Source of the DNA: an uncultured Bacteroidia bacterium
GTDB lineage: Bacteria > Bacteroidota > Bacteroidia > Bacteroidales > UBA932
Length of the DNA: 64,000 nt
Direction of reading: 5' to 3'
Assembly (NCBI GenBank): GCA_902801205.1
Contig: CADCHE010000015.1
Coordinates: 6,110-70,109, forward strand
Part shown: piece after piece, positions 7,268 to 56,865 of the stretch
How the letters are laid out: the number at the start of each line of letters is the position of its first letter
How positions within the stretch are numbered: the stretch's first letter is position 1
Translations under genes and position numbers: made by a program
The notes under the pieces: model-generated
Databases searched by the model: none
Seen by the model: the letters and a program-made list of their open reading frames with translations, nothing else
What the model was told of the DNA's origin: nothing

Positions 7268-7897
7268 ATGAGTCAAGTTCACGTAATCAATCATCCGATG
7301 ATCCAGCACAAGCTGACGATCATGCGCGACAAGCAGACCGGGTCCAAGGACTTCCGGGAACTGTTGAAAGAGATCTCCCTGCTGATGGGGTACGAAATCA
7401 CCCGTGACATTCCGCTCGAAGACGTCGAGATAGAGACGCCGATCTGCAAGATGACTGCGAAGGAAGTTTCCGGCCGCAAGCTGGCCATCGTCCCCATCCT
7501 CCGTGCCGGCATGGGAATGGTGGAAGGCCTCCTGTCGCTCGTCCCTGTCGCAAAGGTCGGCCATATCGGCCTGTATCGCAACGAGGAGACGCACAAGCCT
7601 GTCGTGTATTACTGCAAACTGCCCGAAGACATCCAGGATCGCCTTGTCATTGTCACCGACCCGATGCTTGCCACCGGCGGAAGCGCCTGCGATGCGGTTT
7701 CGATGCTGAAGGAACGTGGCTGCACGAACATCCGGCTGATGTGCCTGGTGGCCGTCCCCGAGGGCCTTTCGAAAGTACAGACGGAGCATCCCGACGTGGA
7801 CATCTACGTGGCGGCCGTAGACGACCATCTGAACGAGAACGCCTACATCGTTCCCGGCCTCGGTGATGCCGGAGACCGCATTTTCGGAACGAAGTAA
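7268..7897 (+). CDS. upp: Uracil phosphoribosyltransferase
   Basis: [31 protein letters not shown] motif [26 protein letters not shown]. Start moved to 7268. Confidence 0.97.
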
Positions 7898-14952: not shown

Positions 14953-16227
14953 TTATTGCTTGGGTTCGATTTCATTCAGTACGGTGCGTGCGCCCTTCAG
15001 GATGTCCTGCTCGCCGAAGACTTTCCGCTCGCGCATGACGAAGCGGCCGCCGGCGATCAGCGAAGAAATGCAGTCGCTGTGGGCGGAGTATACGTAGTTG
15101 GCCAAGAAGGGGGCGGGGGAGAGGAAGAAGGTGTTGTCGGTGTCGACGATCTGGATGTCGGCTTCATACCCTTCTTCGATACGTCCGGTCTTCAGCCCGA
15201 GCGCTTTCGCCCCGTTGACGGTGGCCATGTCGAGCAGCGGCTGCAGCGGCATTTCCGACGGATCCTTCCGCCAGGCTTTCTGGAAGAGGGCGGTCGTCTT
15301 CATCGCCTCCAGTATGTCGAGGTTGTTGGAAGAGGCGCAGCCGTCCGTGCCGAGGCAGACATTGGCGCCTGCCTGCGCGAGTTCCTTCCACTTGAATTTG
15401 TAGCCGGAGGAGAGTTTTGCGTTGGAGTTGATGTTGTGCACGCAGTTGACCTTCCGCCGTCCGAGGATCTCGATGTCCTTCTCGGAGATCCACAGCGTGT
15501 GCGCAGCGATCACGTCCGGTCCGAGCACCCCCAGCTTGTCGAGGTACTCCACCGGGGAGAGCCCGCCGTGCGCGGCCTTGCAATCGAGGTCTTCCTTCTC
15601 CGATTCGGCGACATGGATGTGGATCCGCAGCCCGTGCCGGCGGGCGTACTCGGTCGCCCACAGGATCAGTTCTTCGCTGACGGAGTAGACGGCGTGGATG
15701 CCGATCGTGAAGATCGACCGGCGGTCCCAGTGCGCCGCGACGCTCTCGTGCATGGCGATGCACTGCTCCTTTTCCCGGGCGGCTTCGGACGGATCCATGT
15801 GGTCCAGGAATACGTACGACACGGCGTCACGGATGCCCATCTCCGCTGCGGCGACGTGGGCGGTGGGGGAGAACCAGTACTGGTCGTTGAAGGCAGTCGT
15901 CCCGGTCTTGATCATCTCCAGTGCGGCGGCTTTCGTGCCCCAGTAGATGAACGGTGCGTCGAGTTTCGATTCGATCACCCAGATGTGGGCGAGCCAGTCG
16001 TCCAGGCGCATGTCTTCTCCGATGCCGCGCATCAGGCTCATCGCGGCGTGTGTATGCATATTGATGAATCCGGGTACCGCCGCTTTCAGCGTGCAGTCCA
16101 TCACTTCGGCCCCTTCGGGCGCGTTGACGGAGCCGGCGTTTCCGATCTTGTGGATGATGCCGTCGCGGATGTCGATGTCTACGTGCCGGTTTTCCAGCAG
16201 TATGTTTTTCAAAAGAATGCTTCCCAT
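14953..16227 (-). CDS. Amidohydrolase-family nucleoside deaminase (MtaD-like)
   Basis: Metal ligands NMHTH, HAVY, HIHVAES, LGTDG; SSNNLD. Start moved to MGSILL at 16227. Confidence 0.85.
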   Translation of the reverse strand: MGSILLKNILLENRHVDIDIRDGIIHKIGNAGSVNAPEGAEVMDCTLKAAVPGFINMHTHAAMSLMRGIGEDMRLDDWLAHIWVIESKLDAPFIYWGTKAAALEMIKTGTTAFNDQYWFSPTAHVAAAEMGIRDAVSYVFLDHMDPSEAAREKEQCIAMHESVAAHWDRRSIFTIGIHAVYSVSEELILWATEYARRHGLRIHIHVAESEKEDLDCKAAHGGLSPVEYLDKLGVLGPDVIAAHTLWISEKDIEILGRRKVNCVHNINSNAKLSSGYKFKWKELAQAGANVCLGTDGCASSNNLDILEAMKTTALFQKAWRKDPSEMPLQPLLDMATVNGAKALGLKTGRIEEGYEADIQIVDTDNTFFLSPAPFLANYVYSAHSDCISSLIAGGRFVMRERKVFGEQDILKGARTVLNEIEPKQ

Positions 16228-40475: not shown

Positions 40476-40511
40476 TAAGACCGCATGGAAACAATAAAAC
40501 AAGATAGCATC

Positions 40512-43244
40512 ATGAAACGTCTGATTCTTTCCCTTTCCGCCCTGCTCGTCTGCGTGGGGCTGTGGGCGGCTTCCGGCCTGAAGCCCGTATCGCTCCAATG
40601 CAACCGGATCGACAACCCCACCGGCGTGGAGAAGCCTTCCCTCGGCTGGAAACTGGCTGCTGCCGGCAAGGATGCCGCTTCAGCGGTGCAGACCGCCTAT
40701 GAAATCCAAATCGCTTCCGGGAGCGCGAAGATATTCGCGAAGGCGGATGTCTGGCGTTCCGGCAAGGTGATGTCGGACCGTCAGTTCGGCATTTCCCCCG
40801 AAGGCGCCGGTTTCGCCCCGGCCACGACGTACTGGTGGCGGGTCCGCGTCTGGGACGCTGCAGGAAAGGCTTCCGCCTGGTCGGAACCAGCCTGCTTCCA
40901 GACGGCGCTTTCCGATGCGGCCTGGACGGCTGAATGGATCACCTATGATACGGAAAAAGCGCAGCGCCTGCCGCTCCTCCGCAAAGAGATCCAGGTCGGG
41001 AAAGGGGTTGTCCGTGCGATGGCTTTCGTCTGCGGCCTCGGTGCCTCCGACCTCTTCATCAACGGTGAATATGCCGATCCGACCCGCGTCCTCGATCCGG
41101 CACAGACCAATTATGAGCAGTACGCGCTCTACAGCGCCATCGACGTGACGGACCGTCTTGTCCCCGGGAAGGCCAACTGCCTGGGCGTGATGCTGTACGA
41201 TGGCTGGTTCAACCAGAATTCCGTGTTCGCCGACTTCAGCTATGGCAAGCCGATGCTCCGCCTCCAGCTGCTGGTCGAGTATGCGAACGGCAAGTCGGAG
41301 ACCTTCATTACCGATGAAAGCTGGCAGTGGAAGGAAGGACCTGTCGTCAAGTCGAACATCTACAGCGGCGAAGTCTATGACGCCCGTCTCGAAGTCCCGG
41401 GCTGGGCGGAGGTCGGTGCCCCTTCCGAAGGCTGGCAGTCCTGCCGGAAAGCCACGCAGGGCGTTCCGCCGTCCCTCCGGGCGCAATTGCATCCTGCCAT
41501 CCGTCTGCAGGAGACCCTCGATGCCGTCCGTTTCTGGAAGACGGAAGCCGGCACCTGGGTCTATGACTTCGGTACCAACAACACGGCGGAAGTCCGCTTC
41601 CGCGTCTCCCTGCCTGAAGGAACGCGTCTGACCGTCCGGACGGGTGAAGAGATCCATGGCGAGGGCCAGGGCGTCGATTTCCGTTCCACGGGTATCGTCG
41701 TCGTCCCGGTCCAGACGGACGAGTACATCTGCGCCGGCAAGGGGCTCGAAGAATGGAACCCGCGCGGCACCTACCACGGTTTCCGCTACGCCGAGCTTTC
41801 CTGCCCGGAATCCGTCACGCCGTCAAAAGACTGGTTGCAGGCCATCCTGGTCCATACCGACTTGCGGGAGAAGGCTTCCTTCTCCTGTTCCGAACCGCAG
41901 CTGAACAAGCTTCACGAAATGGCGCTCCGCACCGTCCAGGGAAACATCGTCGGCGTTCCGACGGACTGCCCGACCCGCGAGAAGTGCGGCTGGCTCGGTG
42001 ACAGCCATGCCTACATCAAGATGGCGATGGTCGGCTACGACATGAACAATTTCCTCTACAAATACATGGACGACATCTGTTCCGGTGCCGCCCGTTTCGA
42101 GCCGAACACCTTGCACCACAAGTACAAGAACCGGTATTTCTATTTCACGGACAAGGCTTCGGGCATCCCGTACATGATCGCGCCCGGAAAGCGCCTCTGC
42201 GGCGTGGCATCCCCTGACTGGGGTACGGCCATTGTCCAGTTGCCCTGGCACATGTACCTGTATGACGGTGATGTGGACGCCCTTGTGAAGTATTATGCCT
42301 CGATGGCCCAATGGACGGATTACCTGACGGATACCTCCGTCGGACACATCGTCTATACCGGTCTGGGCGACTGGTGCCCCATGGGCAGCGGCGCCCCGTC
42401 CGTGGAGTTGACCTCTACTGCCTTCCATTACTATGACCTCTGCATCATGGAGCAGGTTGCCGGCATCCTGGACAAGAAAGAGGACCAGGCCCGTTTCGCC
42501 GCGGAACGCAAGGCGGTAAAGGAGGCCTTCATCCACAAGTTCTACAACCCGGTTCTCCATTCTTTCGGCTCGCAGACGGGCGATGCCATGGCCATGGATC
42601 TCGGCCTTTGCCCGGAAGGGGAGGAAAAGGAGGTGGCTTCGGCCGCTGCGATGCTTGTCGATCATTCCCGCCGTTTCTTCAACTGCGGTATCTTCGGCCT
42701 TTGCCGGATCGGCTCCGCCCTTTCGCGCAACGGGCAGGCACCGCTCGCTTACAAGACGTTCACCAAAAAGGGAAACAACAGTTTCGCGTACATGTGGGAG
42801 AAATACGATGCCACAACCCTGTGGGAATCGCTTCCAGTCAATGATGGGAATTATTCTGCCAGCGTGTCGCACTGCCATCCGATGCAGGCCGGCTTCGATA
42901 TCTATTTCTATGAAGATCTCGCCGGCATCCGTCCGGTGGCGGAAGCGCCCGGATACAAGCGTGTGCTGTTCGACACCTGCGCCTGGGACATCGACCTGGC
43001 TTCCACCGATGCCACCATCGATACCCCGTACGGGCCGGTGCGCAGTGCCTGGAACAAGGAGAACGGCAACATGGAGTGGGAGGTTTCCCTGCCTGTCGGA
43101 ACGACGGGCGTCATCGCCGTTCCCGAGGGAGTGAAGAAGCCCGCCGCGCTGGAAGACGGCTCCTTCCAGGAAGTCTGCCGTGCGGACGGGAAGGTATACT
43201 ATGCGCTACCTGCCGGCGTCCACACGTTTGTCTTCACGCTCTGA
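40512..43244 (+). CDS. GH78 alpha-L-rhamnosidase
   Basis: Signal peptide; TYWWRVRVWD, GLGAS, IYSGEVYDAR, YHGFRY, PTDCPTREKCGWLGD, GLGDW, TTLWE. Alternative start at 40485. Confidence 0.92.
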   Translation: MKRLILSLSALLVCVGLWAASGLKPVSLQCNRIDNPTGVEKPSLGWKLAAAGKDAASAVQTAYEIQIASGSAKIFAKADVWRSGKVMSDRQFGISPEGAGFAPATTYWWRVRVWDAAGKASAWSEPACFQTALSDAAWTAEWITYDTEKAQRLPLLRKEIQVGKGVVRAMAFVCGLGASDLFINGEYADPTRVLDPAQTNYEQYALYSAIDVTDRLVPGKANCLGVMLYDGWFNQNSVFADFSYGKPMLRLQLLVEYANGKSETFITDESWQWKEGPVVKSNIYSGEVYDARLEVPGWAEVGAPSEGWQSCRKATQGVPPSLRAQLHPAIRLQETLDAVRFWKTEAGTWVYDFGTNNTAEVRFRVSLPEGTRLTVRTGEEIHGEGQGVDFRSTGIVVVPVQTDEYICAGKGLEEWNPRGTYHGFRYAELSCPESVTPSKDWLQAILVHTDLREKASFSCSEPQLNKLHEMALRTVQGNIVGVPTDCPTREKCGWLGDSHAYIKMAMVGYDMNNFLYKYMDDICSGAARFEPNTLHHKYKNRYFYFTDKASGIPYMIAPGKRLCGVASPDWGTAIVQLPWHMYLYDGDVDALVKYYASMAQWTDYLTDTSVGHIVYTGLGDWCPMGSGAPSVELTSTAFHYYDLCIMEQVAGILDKKEDQARFAAERKAVKEAFIHKFYNPVLHSFGSQTGDAMAMDLGLCPEGEEKEVASAAAMLVDHSRRFFNCGIFGLCRIGSALSRNGQAPLAYKTFTKKGNNSFAYMWEKYDATTLWESLPVNDGNYSASVSHCHPMQAGFDIYFYEDLAGIRPVAEAPGYKRVLFDTCAWDIDLASTDATIDTPYGPVRSAWNKENGNMEWEVSLPVGTTGVIAVPEGVKKPAALEDGSFQEVCRADGKVYYALPAGVHTFVFTL

Positions 43245-44713
43245 TGACCATGACACGGAGAATGCATATCCAAGAGGAGGCGGCACGCTGCCTCCTCTGT
43301 GAAGATGCTCCCTGCACCGCTGCGTGCGGGAGCGGCGATCCGGCACGCGCCGTCCGCGCCGTCCGTTTCGGCAATGCCGCCCAGGCGGGCCGCTGGGTAG
43401 CCTCCTGTTCCGAGGCCGACCTGGAAGCAGCCGAGCAGGCGTGTATCCATTACGACCGGCCGGTACGCCTGCGGGAGCTGTTCGCACTGCTTCCCGAGGC
43501 TCCTGCTGCGGCCCCTGCTTTCCCGCTTGGCATCGATTTCTGCGGCATCCGCTGCGAGAATCCGTTCTTCCTGGCCTCTTCTGCGGTCTGCACCAACTAC
43601 GAGATGGTCGCATCGGCTTTCGAAGCCGGCTGGGCCGGCGTTTTCTACAAGACCCTCTGCATCCAGGATATCGATGAAGTGTCTCCGCGTTTCGATGCCG
43701 TCAAACGTCCCGACGGCTCTTTCGCCGGCTTCCGCAACATGGAACAGCTGTCCGAGAATCCGCTGGAGGAGGACCTGGACATCCTGCACCGCCTCAAGGT
43801 AAACTACCCGGGAAAGGTTGTCGTGGCCTCCATCATGGGCCGGACGGACGAACAGTGGATCCGTCTTGCCAAGAAGGTCGAAAAAGCCGGTGTCGACGCC
43901 ATCGAACTCAATTTTTCCTGTCCGCAGATGCGCCTGGCCGGGATGGGCAGTGACGTGGGCCAGAGTATGGAGCATGTCGCCTTCTACACCTCCTATGTCA
44001 AGCGGGCGGTCAAGATTCCCGTGATCGCGAAGATGACGCCGAACGTCGCGTCGATGACACCGGTCGCGATGGCTGCGCTGCTCGGCGGTGCGGACGGCAT
44101 TTCCGCCATCAATACCATCAAGTCCGTCACGATGGGCGGGGAGGTCGCCGGGAAACGGATCGTTTCCGGTTACTCCGGCGCTGCCGTCAAGCCCATCGCG
44201 CAGCGCTTCATCCTGGAAATCGCGAAGAATCCGCACGCACAGGCGGCGCAGCTTTCCGGTATCGGGGGAATCACGACCTGGCAGGATGCGCTGGAATTCA
44301 TTCAGCTCGGATGCCGTAACGTGCAGATATGTACCGCAGTGATGGAATACGGCTATCGGATTATCGACGACCTCGTCGCCGGTCTGCAGGCGTATCTCGT
44401 CCAGCGCGGCGTCGCTTCGCTGGAAGACATCGTAGGGGAGGCACTCGACCAGTTCGTCCGGGTTTCCGACCTGGACAGGCAGTCATTCGTTTTCCCGACT
44501 GTCGACCGCAGCCTGTGCATCGGTTGCGGCCGTTGCTATGTTTCCTGCCGGGACGGGGGGCACCAGGCGATCACCTTCGGCGCAGACCGCGTTCCGCGGG
44601 TCGTTGGTACGCGTTGCGTAGGGTGCCACCTCTGCCTTCTCGTCTGTCCTTCCGGTGCGATCGGGACCGCCCGCCGGATCCCCAAGCGGGCCGCTTCACC
44701 GCACAAAGTGTAA
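43244..44713 (+). CDS. preA: Dihydropyrimidine dehydrogenase PreA with a fused, truncated PreT-like N-terminal Fe-S module
   Basis: ENPFFLASS, AFEAGWAGV, VSPRF, GFRNMEQLS, catalytic NFSCPQ, KMTPN, GYSG.AVKP, two C-terminal 4Fe-4S motifs; N-terminal EAARCLLCEDAPC. Start at the TGATG overlap. Confidence 0.88.
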   Translation: MTMTRRMHIQEEAARCLLCEDAPCTAACGSGDPARAVRAVRFGNAAQAGRWVASCSEADLEAAEQACIHYDRPVRLRELFALLPEAPAAAPAFPLGIDFCGIRCENPFFLASSAVCTNYEMVASAFEAGWAGVFYKTLCIQDIDEVSPRFDAVKRPDGSFAGFRNMEQLSENPLEEDLDILHRLKVNYPGKVVVASIMGRTDEQWIRLAKKVEKAGVDAIELNFSCPQMRLAGMGSDVGQSMEHVAFYTSYVKRAVKIPVIAKMTPNVASMTPVAMAALLGGADGISAINTIKSVTMGGEVAGKRIVSGYSGAAVKPIAQRFILEIAKNPHAQAAQLSGIGGITTWQDALEFIQLGCRNVQICTAVMEYGYRIIDDLVAGLQAYLVQRGVASLEDIVGEALDQFVRVSDLDRQSFVFPTVDRSLCIGCGRCYVSCRDGGHQAITFGADRVPRVVGTRCVGCHLCLLVCPSGAIGTARRIPKRAASPHKV

Positions 44714-44839: not shown

Positions 44840-45436
44840 CTAGGCCGTCTCCGTTCCGATGAAAGCGAGCAGTTCTTGGTAGAAGCGGTGGGTGGGGAAG
44901 CCGACGACGTTCCAGTAGGAGCCGTCGATGCCCCGGATGCCGACATAGCCGATCCACTCCTGGATGCCGTATGCGCCGGCCTTGTCCAGGGGAGCGCAGT
45001 GGTCGACGTACCACTCGATCATTTCGTCGGTCAGCGTCCCGAAGCGGACTTCCGTCGAGACGGAGAACGTGTGCATCCGGTGGGTGTCCCGCAGGGTGAC
45101 CGCCGTGATGACATGGTGCGACCGGCCCGAAAGCAGGTGCAGCATGCGGATCGCATCTTTCCGGTCGCGCGGTTTGCCCAGGACTCCTTCCCCGCACAGG
45201 ACGAGGGTATCGGCGGTGACGAGGATCTCGTCTTCCGCCAGCGGCCGGTGGAACCCGACCGATTTTCCCTCCGACATGCACGAAGGGATCCGTTCATGCG
45301 GCGTATCCGGCGGAATCGTCTCTATGAAAGAGGTTTCCGCATCGACGGTGAAGGGAAGCCGCAGGGCTTCCATCAGATCGCGGCGGCGGGGAGAATTGCT
45401 TCCTAGGACCAGCCGTTTTTTTGCGGGCAGTTCCAT
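44840..45436 (-). CDS. maf: Maf-family nucleoside triphosphate pyrophosphatase
   Basis: LGSNSPRRR, ADTLV, LGKP, DKAGAYGIQ, GSYWNVVGFP. Confidence 0.93.
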   Translation of the reverse strand: MELPAKKRLVLGSNSPRRRDLMEALRLPFTVDAETSFIETIPPDTPHERIPSCMSEGKSVGFHRPLAEDEILVTADTLVLCGEGVLGKPRDRKDAIRMLHLLSGRSHHVITAVTLRDTHRMHTFSVSTEVRFGTLTDEMIEWYVDHCAPLDKAGAYGIQEWIGYVGIRGIDGSYWNVVGFPTHRFYQELLAFIGTETA

Positions 45437-54532: not shown

Positions 54533-55810
54533 TTATTTTATTTTCGTTAGGTCTTTTTCGATCCATTTTCGCAATGCATCGAGTGCAGAGGCGGAAAACC
54601 GCTCGATATTGCGTTTCCGGTCGTTGCTGAAGGTGTGTCTTTCACTGTGCGTACCGGCCGGACCGGCGACCCCGATCCATACGGTTCCGACCGGCCATGT
54701 CCCATCTCCCTGCGGACCGGCGAGTCCGGTCGTCGCGACGGCATAAGTGCTCCCGGTCAGTCGCCGGACACCTGCGGCCATGGCTTCGGCTACTTCGCCG
54801 CTGACGACGCCATGTTTTTCGATGGTTTCCGCCGGCACGCCCAGCACTTGCTCCTTGACCGCGACGGCGTAGGACGTGACGGACCCCAGGTAATACTCCG
54901 AAGCACCCGGTACGGAGGTCAGCAGCGACGAAATCATGCCGCCCGTGCAGGATTCTGCTGCGCTGACCGTCTTTCCGGTGCCGCGCAGCAGGCGTCCGAC
55001 CGTATTCTCGAGGGTGTCGTCGCCCTGCGCATAGACCAGGTCGCCCAAAAGTGGCATGAGCTGCGCGAAGGCGGCGTCGATCTGCTTCTCTTCTTCTTCA
55101 CGGTTGCCGCCATAGATCGACAGACGCAGGCGTACGCCTGTCAGGGGATTGGGCAAGTAGGCCAGGTGCATCTTAGCCGGCAGTGCATCCTCCCAAGGTG
55201 CAATGCGCTCCGCCAGGGCGGATTCTGCCAGACCATAGACCATCAGGCACTTGTGGAAGATGTCCGATAGGCTGGCGTGGGCCCGGATGTCCGAAAGGAT
55301 ATCCGGAAGCGCGCCGAGTGCTTCGAAGGGTACGCCGGGAAGGGCGTACAGCGTGGCGGGATGGCCGAAGCGCTCGGCGGGAAAACGGAAAACCATCACC
55401 GGAGCCGTTCCCTTGCGGTTGGGAATCACCTCGCAGCCCTTCGGGACGAGGGCCTGTGCTTTGTTGCTTTCGAGGGCCTCCAGTCCACGCGCATGCAGGA
55501 TGCGGTGGATGATGTCCAGTTGCTCTTCGTTGCAGACATATTCGCCGGAGCCCAGGAGTTCAGCCAAGGCCGCCTTCGTGATGTCGTCCTTGGTCGGTCC
55601 CAGGCCGCCGGTGCAGATCACGATGTCGTTCTGACGCAGTTCTCCCTCCAGGTTCCGGAGGATGGCGTCGTGCTCGTCGCCGATGGAAAGCATACGCGTG
55701 ACCTGGATGCCCGTCGCTTCCAGTTCCCGGGCGATGAAGGCTGAATTCGTATCGATGATCTGGCCGATGAGGATCTCATCGCCGATGGTACAGACTGAAG
55801 CGGTCGTCAT
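54533..55810 (-). CDS. cinA: CinA-family protein (MocF domain plus PncC NMN deamidase)
   Basis: IGDEILIGQIIDTNS, GGLGPTKDDIT, AESCTGG, TTGLAGP. Confidence 0.94.
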   Translation of the reverse strand: MTTASVCTIGDEILIGQIIDTNSAFIARELEATGIQVTRMLSIGDEHDAILRNLEGELRQNDIVICTGGLGPTKDDITKAALAELLGSGEYVCNEEQLDIIHRILHARGLEALESNKAQALVPKGCEVIPNRKGTAPVMVFRFPAERFGHPATLYALPGVPFEALGALPDILSDIRAHASLSDIFHKCLMVYGLAESALAERIAPWEDALPAKMHLAYLPNPLTGVRLRLSIYGGNREEEEKQIDAAFAQLMPLLGDLVYAQGDDTLENTVGRLLRGTGKTVSAAESCTGGMISSLLTSVPGASEYYLGSVTSYAVAVKEQVLGVPAETIEKHGVVSGEVAEAMAAGVRRLTGSTYAVATTGLAGPQGDGTWPVGTVWIGVAGPAGTHSERHTFSNDRKRNIERFSASALDALRKWIEKDLTKIK

Positions 55811-56865
55811 TGTTTTTTCCCTCCCTCCGCAGTGGCATTCAGGTATTTCAGTATCTTGTGGACGAAGGCAGGTCCTTCGTATATAAATCCAGTGTAAATC
55901 TCTATCAACGAGGCACCTGCATCAAGCATCCGCTGCGCGCGCTGCGGTGTGTTGATGCCGCCGACGCCAATGATGGGGAGTCCGCCCTGCGTTTTCTCGT
56001 GGATATAGCGGACCAGGGCGAGATTCTTCTCGAAGAGCGGAGCACCGGAAAGGCCGCCTTTCCCGATCTTTTCCAACGTTTCCGCCGGAGTCTTCAGCCC
56101 TTCGCGCGAGCGGGTGGTGTTGCCGACGATAAGACCATCCACGCCGGACAATCTGCAATAGTGGATCAGGCCGTCCAGCTCTTCCTTTTCGATATCGGGG
56201 GAGACCTTGATCAGCAGCGGTTTGTAGGTATCGCAGCCCATGCGCATCTCCAGCAGGGGATCGACGAGGGCAGGCAGGTATCCGGCGCCTTGCAGGCGTT
56301 GCAGGCCCTCCACGTTGGGACAGGACACGTTGACCGTCAGGAAATCCACGAAGTCATACAGCGTAGAAAAGCACCGGAGATAATCCCGGCGGATCTCTTC
56401 TTCGCTTTCGCTGCCGGTATTCTTGGCTATGCTGCCGGCGAGCAGCACTTCGGGCCGGTCCTTGCCGATGCGTTCCACGGCCTTGTCTACCCCCTCATTG
56501 CCCAGGCCCATCCGGTTGATGAGGGCTTGGTCGGCGGGCAGCCGGAACAGGCGCGGGGCAGGATTGCCCGGCTGCGCCTCCGGGGTGAAAGAACCCACTT
56601 CGATGAAAGAGAACCCGCACCAGGACAACTCGTTGTAGCAGGTTGCGTTTTTGTCCAGTCCGGCCGCCAGGCCGACGGGATGCGGAAAATCGATGCCGAA
56701 AACCCGCCGAGCGAGCTGCGGAGCCGGTTTTTTCTTGTACAGCATGCGCATGACCGCACCTGCACCGGGGATCCGCCGCATGATCCGGAGACCCTTCAGG
56801 ACAAGGTCGTGGGCTTTTTCCGGGTTCATGCGGAAAAGGATGGGGCGTATGATGGACTTGTACAT
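55807..56865 (-). CDS. pyrD: Quinone-dependent dihydroorotate dehydrogenase (class 2)
   Basis: PEKAH, GLAAGLDKNA, GNPAPRLFRL, NRMG, NVSCPN, KVSPD, GGLSG, IGVGGI. Confidence 0.95.
   Translation of the reverse strand: MYKSIIRPILFRMNPEKAHDLVLKGLRIMRRIPGAGAVMRMLYKKKPAPQLARRVFGIDFPHPVGLAAGLDKNATCYNELSWCGFSFIEVGSFTPEAQPGNPAPRLFRLPADQALINRMGLGNEGVDKAVERIGKDRPEVLLAGSIAKNTGSESEEEIRRDYLRCFSTLYDFVDFLTVNVSCPNVEGLQRLQGAGYLPALVDPLLEMRMGCDTYKPLLIKVSPDIEKEELDGLIHYCRLSGVDGLIVGNTTRSREGLKTPAETLEKIGKGGLSGAPLFEKNLALVRYIHEKTQGGLPIIGVGGINTPQRAQRMLDAGASLIEIYTGFIYEGPAFVHKILKYLNATAEGGKKQ

Follow-up and report, generated by a model that had tools for sequence, protein, structure and literature searches.

A PydAc-type single-chain dihydropyrimidine dehydrogenase homolog with a degenerate N-terminal iron-sulfur motif in Bacteroidales

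In this study, we analyzed a gene for a single-chain homolog of dihydropyrimidine dehydrogenase (DPD) in a 64,000-nucleotide stretch of DNA (hereafter the window) from an uncultured Bacteroidia bacterium of the order Bacteroidales (lineage UBA932; contig CADCHE010000015.1, positions 6,110 to 70,109). The gene, at window positions 43244-44713 on the forward strand, encodes a homolog of clostridial PydAc, in which an N-terminal iron-sulfur (Fe-S) domain, a barrel that binds flavin mononucleotide (FMN) and a C-terminal ferredoxin domain are joined in one chain, with no domain for flavin adenine dinucleotide (FAD) or for reduced nicotinamide adenine dinucleotide (phosphate) (NAD(P)H). This three-module, FAD-less architecture is already known from the description of PydAc in 2020; what is new is the Bacteroidales branch, in which two of the eight N-terminal cysteines (Cys) of PydAc are never Cys and on which our literature search found no paper. 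We consider it fairly probable that the protein is a PydAc-type homodimeric uracil/thymine reductase that is driven by ferredoxin or flavodoxin, carries three [4Fe-4S] clusters per chain and has no downstream pathway in its host.

The gene is a stop-free open reading frame that translates into 489 amino acids. Translation could begin at M1, M3 or M7; most homologs start at the equivalents of M3-M7. The N-terminal Fe-S domain (residues 1-90; 43244-43513) is a homolog of DPD domain I and of the N-terminal part of PreT, as judged by hhalign and by alignment with pig DPD, and this stretch was modelled with a pLDDT of ~90 in the predicted structure. It carries a first Cys motif, C16-x2-C19-x4-C24-x3-C28 (43289-43327), and a second, degenerate one, C55 ... 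A58 ... A63 ... C67 (43406-43444). It is followed by the FMN-binding TIM barrel of the DHOD/PreA type (residues 95-400; 43526-44443; Pfam DHO_dh, aligned with pig DPD 530-849), whose active-site loop N-F-S-C-P-Q-M with the catalytic Cys226 (43910-43930) is invariant in the family and aligns with L-N-L-S-C671-P-H of the pig enzyme. The chain ends in a 2x[4Fe-4S] ferredoxin domain (residues 417-476; 44492-44671; Pfam Fer4_21, 1e-16; pig DPD 912-998), all eight Cys of which (425, 428, 431, 435, 458, 461, 464 and 468) are present and family-invariant. All of these features lie on the forward strand. The Pfam matches covered residues 98-385 (DHO_dh), 420-473 (4Fe-4S dicluster domain) and, weakly, 6-54 (Fer4_20), and the scan of the 489-residue protein returned no Pyr_redox, FAD or NAD-binding domain; the sole G-x-G-x-x-A string, at G29, lies within the N-terminal Fe-S domain. 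An initial annotation, made by a model from the sequence alone, had described a single-chain DPD homolog lacking a FAD/NAD(P)H domain, with the catalytic Cys (N-F-S-C226-P-Q) and both C-terminal clusters intact, and the present results agree with it on each of these points. The features of the gene are far beyond chance; thousands of database proteins of ~480 residues share its layout.

On the basis of NCBIfam models, the protein exceeded the cut-off of the PreA equivalog (NF006183, 511 bits versus 335), and every dihydroorotate dehydrogenase (DHODH) model remained under its cut-off (the best, NF005574, 179 bits versus 269). Residues 95-489 were 50% identical to Escherichia coli PreA, and pig DPD was the top solved relative both by sequence and by fold. 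The barrel carries K136, N165, E167, N223, S225, C226, K263, N290 and T291; in the alignment with the pig enzyme, N609, E611, N668, S670, C671, N736 and T737 correspond to N165, E167, N223, S225, C226, N290 and T291, respectively. The pyrimidine-binding and catalytic residues were invariant in 113 members of the Bacteroidales clade, 119 PydAc proteins and E. coli PreA. Across these three groups, 106 columns were at least 98% conserved, and they included every known pocket and catalytic residue. The clade-specific substitutions (18 in number) were conservative, and some of them match pig DPD.

Comparison with characterized systems placed the protein closest in architecture to PydAc. The Clostridium chromiireducens enzyme (CcPydAc, UniProt A0A399ILH0) is collinear with the window protein end to end (47% identity, the alignment starting at residue 3); the two share the arrangement of three modules on a single polypeptide, the absence of a FAD/NAD(P)H domain, and their catalytic and base-binding residues. 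Three differences were observed: the N-terminal domain of PydAc carries eight Cys, enough for two clusters, whereas that of the window protein has six; the PydAc gene lies between pydB and pydC whereas the window gene has no Pyd neighbors and its genome lacks both enzymes; and the Bacteroidales proteins form a clade of their own on a long branch. We located the CcPydAc gene at L176:8986-10491, between a dihydropyrimidinase gene (TIGR02033, 483 bits) and a gene for an M20 carbamoylase-family amidase, a pydB/pydC-flanked order that matches the published description (PMC7332683). CcPydAc was reported to reduce uracil with reduced methyl viologen or ferredoxin and not with NAD(P)H (PMC7332683). 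The proposal in the initial annotation of a ferredoxin/flavodoxin-driven DPD is supported by the identity to CcPydAc, the PreA-model score and the retention of the shared pocket and catalytic residues. The window protein also resembles the E. coli PreT-PreA pair, since homology to PreT (its first ~106 residues) covers the N-terminal domain and homology to PreA the remainder; in contrast with that pair, neither the gene nor its locus contains FAD/NAD domains, no dedicated PreT was found in the genome, and the Fe-S segment of PreT origin is joined to PreA in one chain, with a single complete cluster site left. E. coli PreTA has been described as an orphan reductase without downstream Pyd enzymes (PMC7332683), which is the same state as in the organism of the window. 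As for pig DPD (PDB 1GT8/1H7X), the window protein has the equivalents of domains I, IV and V, and is likewise predicted to form a homodimer with Fe-S domains at the interface, but it lacks domains II and III, which serve FAD and NADPH.

The N-terminal domain is where the Bacteroidales proteins depart from PydAc. A profile of 37 family N-termini aligned residues 8-84 of the window protein with residues 18-106 of E. coli PreT (hhalign probability 97%, E 5e-11), consistent with the PreT-type CxxC-x4-C-x3-C motif that had been recognized in the initial annotation. Pig DPD 74-93 aligned with residues 11-30 of the window protein. When the N-terminal profile was compared with sequences of the Protein Data Bank (PDB), the first Cys motif alone aligned with pig DPD; thus, the second motif was mapped through E. 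coli PreT and CcPydAc. The eight N-terminal Cys of CcPydAc are at residues 20, 23, 28, 32, 63, 66, 71 and 75 (numbered 1-8 below). In a gap-free alignment, the window protein has Cys at positions 1-5 and 8 and Ala at positions 6 (A58) and 7 (A63), giving six Cys in the pattern CCCCCAAC instead of the eight of PydAc. The same was true of the whole clade, which showed the pattern CCCCCxAC (n=113) as opposed to CCCCCCCC in 119 PydAc proteins: positions 6 and 7 were never Cys, position 7 was Ala in nearly all members, and position 6 was variable. The initial annotation had read the second group correctly as A-E-Q-A-C and had suspected a degenerate cluster; it counted one missing Cys, whereas two are missing (C55 ... 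A-E-Q-A-C67), and they are missing clade-wide.

In 2x[4Fe-4S] sites of the ferredoxin type, each cluster draws its ligands from both motifs: one is held by the three leading Cys of motif 1 together with the final Cys of motif 2, and the other by the four Cys that are left. By this rule, C16, C19, C24 and C67 (positions 1-3 and 8) form a complete site, and the other site is left with C28 and C55. The four residues of the complete site were Cys in 112 of the 113 clade members, the exception being N-terminally truncated. Positions 4 and 5 appeared relaxed: both were Cys in 97 of these 113 proteins, nine lacked the Cys at position 5, two lacked that at position 4 and five lacked both. Since the second motif never has Cys at two of its four positions, the outer N-terminal cluster has most likely been lost in the Bacteroidales clade, with C28 as a remnant ligand. 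The pig clusters are reportedly divided into C79/82/87/140 and C91/130/136/Q156 (Dobritzsch and colleagues, 2001), a division that also follows from ferredoxin-fold logic. Judging from the Cys pattern, the lost cluster would correspond to the FAD-proximal one of mammalian DPD, leaving three clusters per chain, not four. The published ligand list of pig DPD includes one cluster bound by three Cys and Gln156 (PMC8156676); the window protein has two Cys there, and the Gln156-equivalent position is a variable hydrophobic residue in its family. PreT, mammalian DPD and PydAc all keep the Cys at position 7, and thus Ala at this position is derived, independently of where the tree is rooted.

Impaired outer sites were also seen outside the clade. 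Four Bacillota loci (L182, L185, L187 and L226, including Ruminiclostridium hungatei DSM 14427) showed an independent loss of Cys 6, or of Cys 6 and 7, with the patterns CCCCCACC, CCCCCGCC, CCCCCNCC and CCCCCKSC, and the gene for dihydropyrimidinase (PydB) was still adjacent. A Sphaerochaeta metagenome-assembled genome (MAG; L179:9001-10110, also L180) contained a PydAc-like gene with a degenerate N-terminus, Ala for the fourth Cys and a clade-like I-H-Y-D-R-P motif; this gene lies in a full Pyd cluster (amidohydrolase, aminotransferase, Fe-ADH, M20 peptidase and ABC transporter) and appears frameshifted in the long-read assembly. As these cases lie beside Pyd genes, an impaired outer site is compatible with a catabolic role.

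To describe the distribution of the group, 236 full-length relatives were extracted from three scans of species-representative genomes. Slightly over half of them (119) were eight-Cys proteins, mainly from Bacillota, with some from Spirochaetota and others; 113, the window protein included, had a residue other than Cys at position 6 as well as at position 7. Named loci of this degenerate group (n=112) were exclusively from Bacteroidota and nearly all were classed as Bacteroidales, most often Prevotellaceae (63), followed by Bacteroidaceae, Muribaculaceae, Porphyromonadaceae and Paludibacteraceae. The clade was monophyletic, with a FastTree support of 0.96 and, in a quick IQ-TREE run on 55 rows, an SH-aLRT value of 100. 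Spirochaetota PydAc appeared as its sister in FastTree, a placement that the IQ-TREE quick tree left unsettled with a warning of long-branch attraction, and we claim no donor lineage. The distribution of the gene is patchy: in a family-balanced sample, 17 of the 201 genomes of the order had a PreA-model match above the cut-off, and the searched genomes of the same genus and of the same family had none. It should be noted that most of these Bacteroidales matches were open frames of ~420 amino acids that scored higher than the window gene (540-660 bits); at that length they are too short for the N-terminal domain and are probably canonical PreA. A search of 1.84 billion representatives with the N-terminal-domain profile yielded mostly contig-end fragments, with P0140 (a fusion to xanthine phosphoribosyltransferase, Xpt), P0155, P0231 and P0252 as leads; the gene upstream of P0252 (L178), annotated in view of a possible UacX-like context, matched no family. 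In addition, eight-Cys PydAc genes with PydB and PydC were present on three contigs labelled Bacteroides or Parabacteroides distasonis (L191, L193 and L228). One of them, L228, is near-identical to L221 on a contig labelled Elusimicrobiaceae (branch lengths 0.02-0.05), which suggests mis-binning or a very recent transfer.

The two groups also differed in genomic context. A PydB and/or PydC homolog lay within ~9 kb of 112 of the 113 eight-Cys PydAc genes with usable flanks, whereas 101 of 102 loci of the degenerate group had neither within that distance; the remaining locus encodes a Bacillota protein that does not belong to the Bacteroidales clade. Within ~8 kb, PydB or PydC was found in none of the 80 first-scan loci. 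When neighbors were clustered across ~72 clade loci, no family occurred in more than six of them. An operon partner was therefore rejected; a metallophosphatase with a PQQ-like propeller, FtsX, a nitroreductase, an M15 peptidase and an ABC ATPase recurred, with no evident link. The gene upstream in the window (40485-43244, forward strand; Pfam) encodes a GH78 alpha-L-rhamnosidase, and its stop codon overlaps the M1 start of the DPD homolog (TGATG). The coupling of the two genes noted in the initial annotation is thus real only if M1 is used, which is uncertain; as neighbors are not conserved, the overlap is incidental and the gene travels alone. On the other side, a gene for a Maf-family nucleotide pyrophosphatase (44840-45436, reverse strand) converges on the 3' end of the gene and is not conserved elsewhere. 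A sigma-70 promoter and terminator scan gave hits at the level of shuffled sequence, and this consensus does not apply to Bacteroidota.

We then considered the rest of the genome (2.47 Mb, 98.7% complete). No dihydropyrimidinase was found in it above the cut-off, the best TIGR02033 match being PyrC (159 bits versus 393), and no gene in it matched the M20 ureidopropionase PydC; its CN-hydrolases were AguB (beside AguA), a YafV-like amidase and others. Both enzymes had been named as targets for a genome search in the initial annotation. PreT was likewise lacking from the genome, in line with the earlier remark that no preT gene lies nearby: the other Fer4_20 genes are NfnB, beside NfnA (TIGR01316, 579 bits), and two gltB-gltD pairs. 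In one of these pairs, on contig C21, gltD occurs as two overlapping open reading frames of 203 and 245 amino acids (L002:1435-2046 and 2043-2780), compared with a single frame in the copy on contig C8 (L003:1435-2781); the split could be due to a frameshift, a pseudogene or an assembly error. Pyruvate:ferredoxin oxidoreductase (1202 amino acids) and other 2-oxoacid oxidoreductases are encoded and are candidate reductants of ferredoxin. For substrate supply, the genome has Upp and two nucleobase permeases. A uracil phosphoribosyltransferase gene (PF14681, 274 bits) lies in the window itself at 7283-7891 on the forward strand.

The architecture, the homology, the Cys pattern, the structure of the clade and the genomic context are directly observed. 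As for cofactor content, electron donor, substrate, direction and physiological role, we infer the following scheme. The protein would act, most likely, as a homodimer. Single electrons would come from ferredoxin or flavodoxin, low-potential carriers that could be reduced, for example, by the pyruvate:ferredoxin oxidoreductase of the genome, and would enter at the sole retained N-terminal [4Fe-4S] cluster (C16, C19, C24 and C67). Their onward route would lead to FMN by way of the pair of C-terminal clusters, probably on the partner subunit. At the flavin, uracil or thymine and, by analogy, 5-fluorouracil would be converted by reduction into the 5,6-dihydro derivative, the proton being donated by Cys226. 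Since the genome has neither dihydropyrimidinase nor ureidopropionase, the dihydropyrimidine would be the end product in this organism, as for E. coli PreTA; it might serve as an electron sink, result from detoxification or be passed on by cross-feeding.

The predicted structure of the homodimer is consistent with this scheme. Its ipSAE was 0.93, compared with 0.00 for the best of three controls. Of 30 proteins solved as pairs, 20 attained the mark, as did one of 23 solved as single chains; contact agreement between runs was at least 93%, and the pLDDT of the partner was at least 91. Pig DPD is a solved dimer, and thus this result may reflect memory of that structure or likeness to it and not independent support. 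Near the retained cluster site, the predicted interface included residues 5-21 and 68-72; near the C-terminal cluster sites, it included residues 426-441 and 459-470. C28 and C55 lay outside it. In this model, the position of the retained cluster at the interface would fit a wire from the N-terminal cluster to the C-terminal clusters of the partner and on to FMN, and the lost cluster would have been peripheral.

Several observations weigh against a PydAc-like reductase of uracil and thymine. The stem branch of the clade is long (0.55 changes per site in IQ-TREE), and the similarity of the clade to E. coli PreA (~51%) and to CcPydAc (~48%) is below that between those two groups (~60%). Together with the loss of the Pyd partners, a long stem would also fit a changed role or substrate; these are classic signs of a shifted role. 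A stand-alone flavodoxin was not found in the genome (PF00258), the only match being a flavodiiron-type protein. In addition, 86% of members keep both C28 and C55, which may thus hold a second, non-canonical cluster together with carboxylate or His ligands. Two further points concern purines. In four Prevotella/Prevotellaceae MAGs from independent studies (L068:3437-5467, L071:7419-9458, L079:7320-9467 and L088:3215-5278; TIGR01744, 269-271 bits; products of 676-715 amino acids), the PydAc-like protein carries Xpt as an in-frame N-terminal fusion, as it does in the database cluster representative P0140, and this points to purine salvage. Moreover, the PydAc-like UacX of Clostridioides difficile was shown to reduce 2,8-dioxopurine (yanthine) and not uracil (PMC12507026). 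In the cultured Prevotella lacticifex JCM 34664 (L052), a separate Xpt gene was found ~2.5 kb upstream of the PydAc-like gene. A 194-amino-acid in-frame extension in another locus, L082, matched no family and is probably a spurious open frame.

It is conceivable, although on balance unlikely, that the clade was repurposed after the loss of the partners and of the outer cluster and now serves nucleobase salvage or redox balancing, no longer opening pyrimidine catabolism. Possible forms of such a change are the use of a purine-type ring, as hinted by the Xpt fusions, or the oxidation of dihydropyrimidines to salvageable bases, with a redox partner unlike that of clostridial PydAc. The first form, in which an unchanged fold and chemistry would serve base salvage by acting not on pyrimidines but on some other nucleobase, for instance a purine derivative with a ring of the xanthine or 2,8-dioxopurine type, seems to us rather unlikely. 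It would accord with the Xpt fusions, the Xpt gene of P. lacticifex, the activity of UacX, and the long stem branch with its lost Pyd context. UacX, set beside the window protein by description only, is also a PydA homolog with an FMN site, no FAD domain and a proposed ferredoxin donor (PMC12507026). However, UacX belongs to a uric-acid cluster with SsnA, XdhD and HyuA, whereas in the genome of the window neither SsnA nor a hydrolase of the dihydropyrimidinase/HyuA type was found above the cut-off (XdhD was not searched for); the best SsnA match, 165 bits versus 455, was a TRZ/ATZ-type deaminase gene of the window (14974-16185, reverse strand). Furthermore, the genome has no Xpt, which was nearby in only ~5 of 80 loci, and the pocket residues common to PreA and PydAc are unchanged, the clade substitutions being conservative and several of them matching pig DPD.

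The second form concerns the direction of the reaction. DPD chemistry is reversible, and the enzyme might oxidize dihydrouracil or dihydrothymine, derived from the turnover of tRNA dihydrouridine or excreted by neighboring microbes or the host, to uracil or thymine for salvage by Upp, passing electrons to a higher-potential acceptor. The absence of downstream catabolic enzymes from the genome, the presence of Upp and nucleobase permeases, and a redox partner left open once the NAD(P)H module and the outer cluster had been lost would all accord with this direction. We regard it as improbable, given that the characterized relatives PydAc and PreTA are reductases (PMC7332683), that ferredoxin would be an unfavorable acceptor and that no conserved candidate acceptor gene adjoins the gene.

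A split, PreTA-like NAD(P)H-dependent enzyme, in which the flavoprotein is encoded elsewhere (for example, NfnB- or GltD-like proteins on contigs C17 or C8), appears very improbable. The genome does encode three PreT-related proteins, the best of which (C17) is 33% identical to E. coli PreT, but these genes lie in operons of their own (NfnA-NfnB and gltB-gltD). The window protein already has its own PreT-type Fe-S domain, the FAD-facing cluster is exactly the one that is degenerate, and CcPydAc works without such a partner (PMC7332683). Dependence on a separate PreT-like partner would have contradicted the initial annotation; in 101 of 102 clade loci the adjacent genes include no such partner, and the genome has none that is dedicated to this protein. 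Finally, a class-1-like DHODH for pyrimidine biosynthesis, suggested by the Pfam DHO_dh domain and by weak class 1 DHODH matches and raised as the other objection to the initial annotation, can practically be dismissed: these models gave at most 179 bits against cut-offs of ~270, compared with 511 against 335 for PreA, the gene is not core biosynthetic as it was not found in same-genus or same-family genomes or in ~90% of the Bacteroidales searched, and a bona fide class 2 (quinone-dependent) PyrD, encoded ~11 kb downstream (55807-56865, reverse strand; NF003652, 408 bits versus 267), covers dihydroorotate oxidation. PyrD and the window gene are the only two DHO_dh genes of the genome, and pyrimidine synthesis thus does not need the PreA-like gene. 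The PydAc-type reductase of uracil and thymine remains the reading that we favor.

Previous surveys had little chance of detecting this group. Surveys of 5-fluorouracil inactivation in gut bacteria required adjacent preT and preA and reported mainly Proteobacteria and Firmicutes (bioRxiv 10.1101/820084), and the survey of the 2020 PydAc study required a PydB neighbor (PMC7332683); both filters exclude the Bacteroidales clade. Our data point to a PreT-independent single-chain enzyme that is widespread in Prevotellaceae, Muribaculaceae and other Bacteroidales and, if it reduces 5-fluorouracil with ferredoxin under gut conditions, it would represent an overlooked route of drug inactivation. The clade also offers a natural experiment on the electron wire of DPD, in which the interface cluster appears to have been kept and the FAD-facing one discarded, and which predicts a working three-cluster chain. 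For the biology of rumen and gut Bacteroidales, an orphan uracil/thymine reductase may act as an electron sink that oxidizes ferredoxin, or may support cross-feeding of dihydropyrimidines to Firmicutes and Spirochaetes that possess the rest of the pathway.

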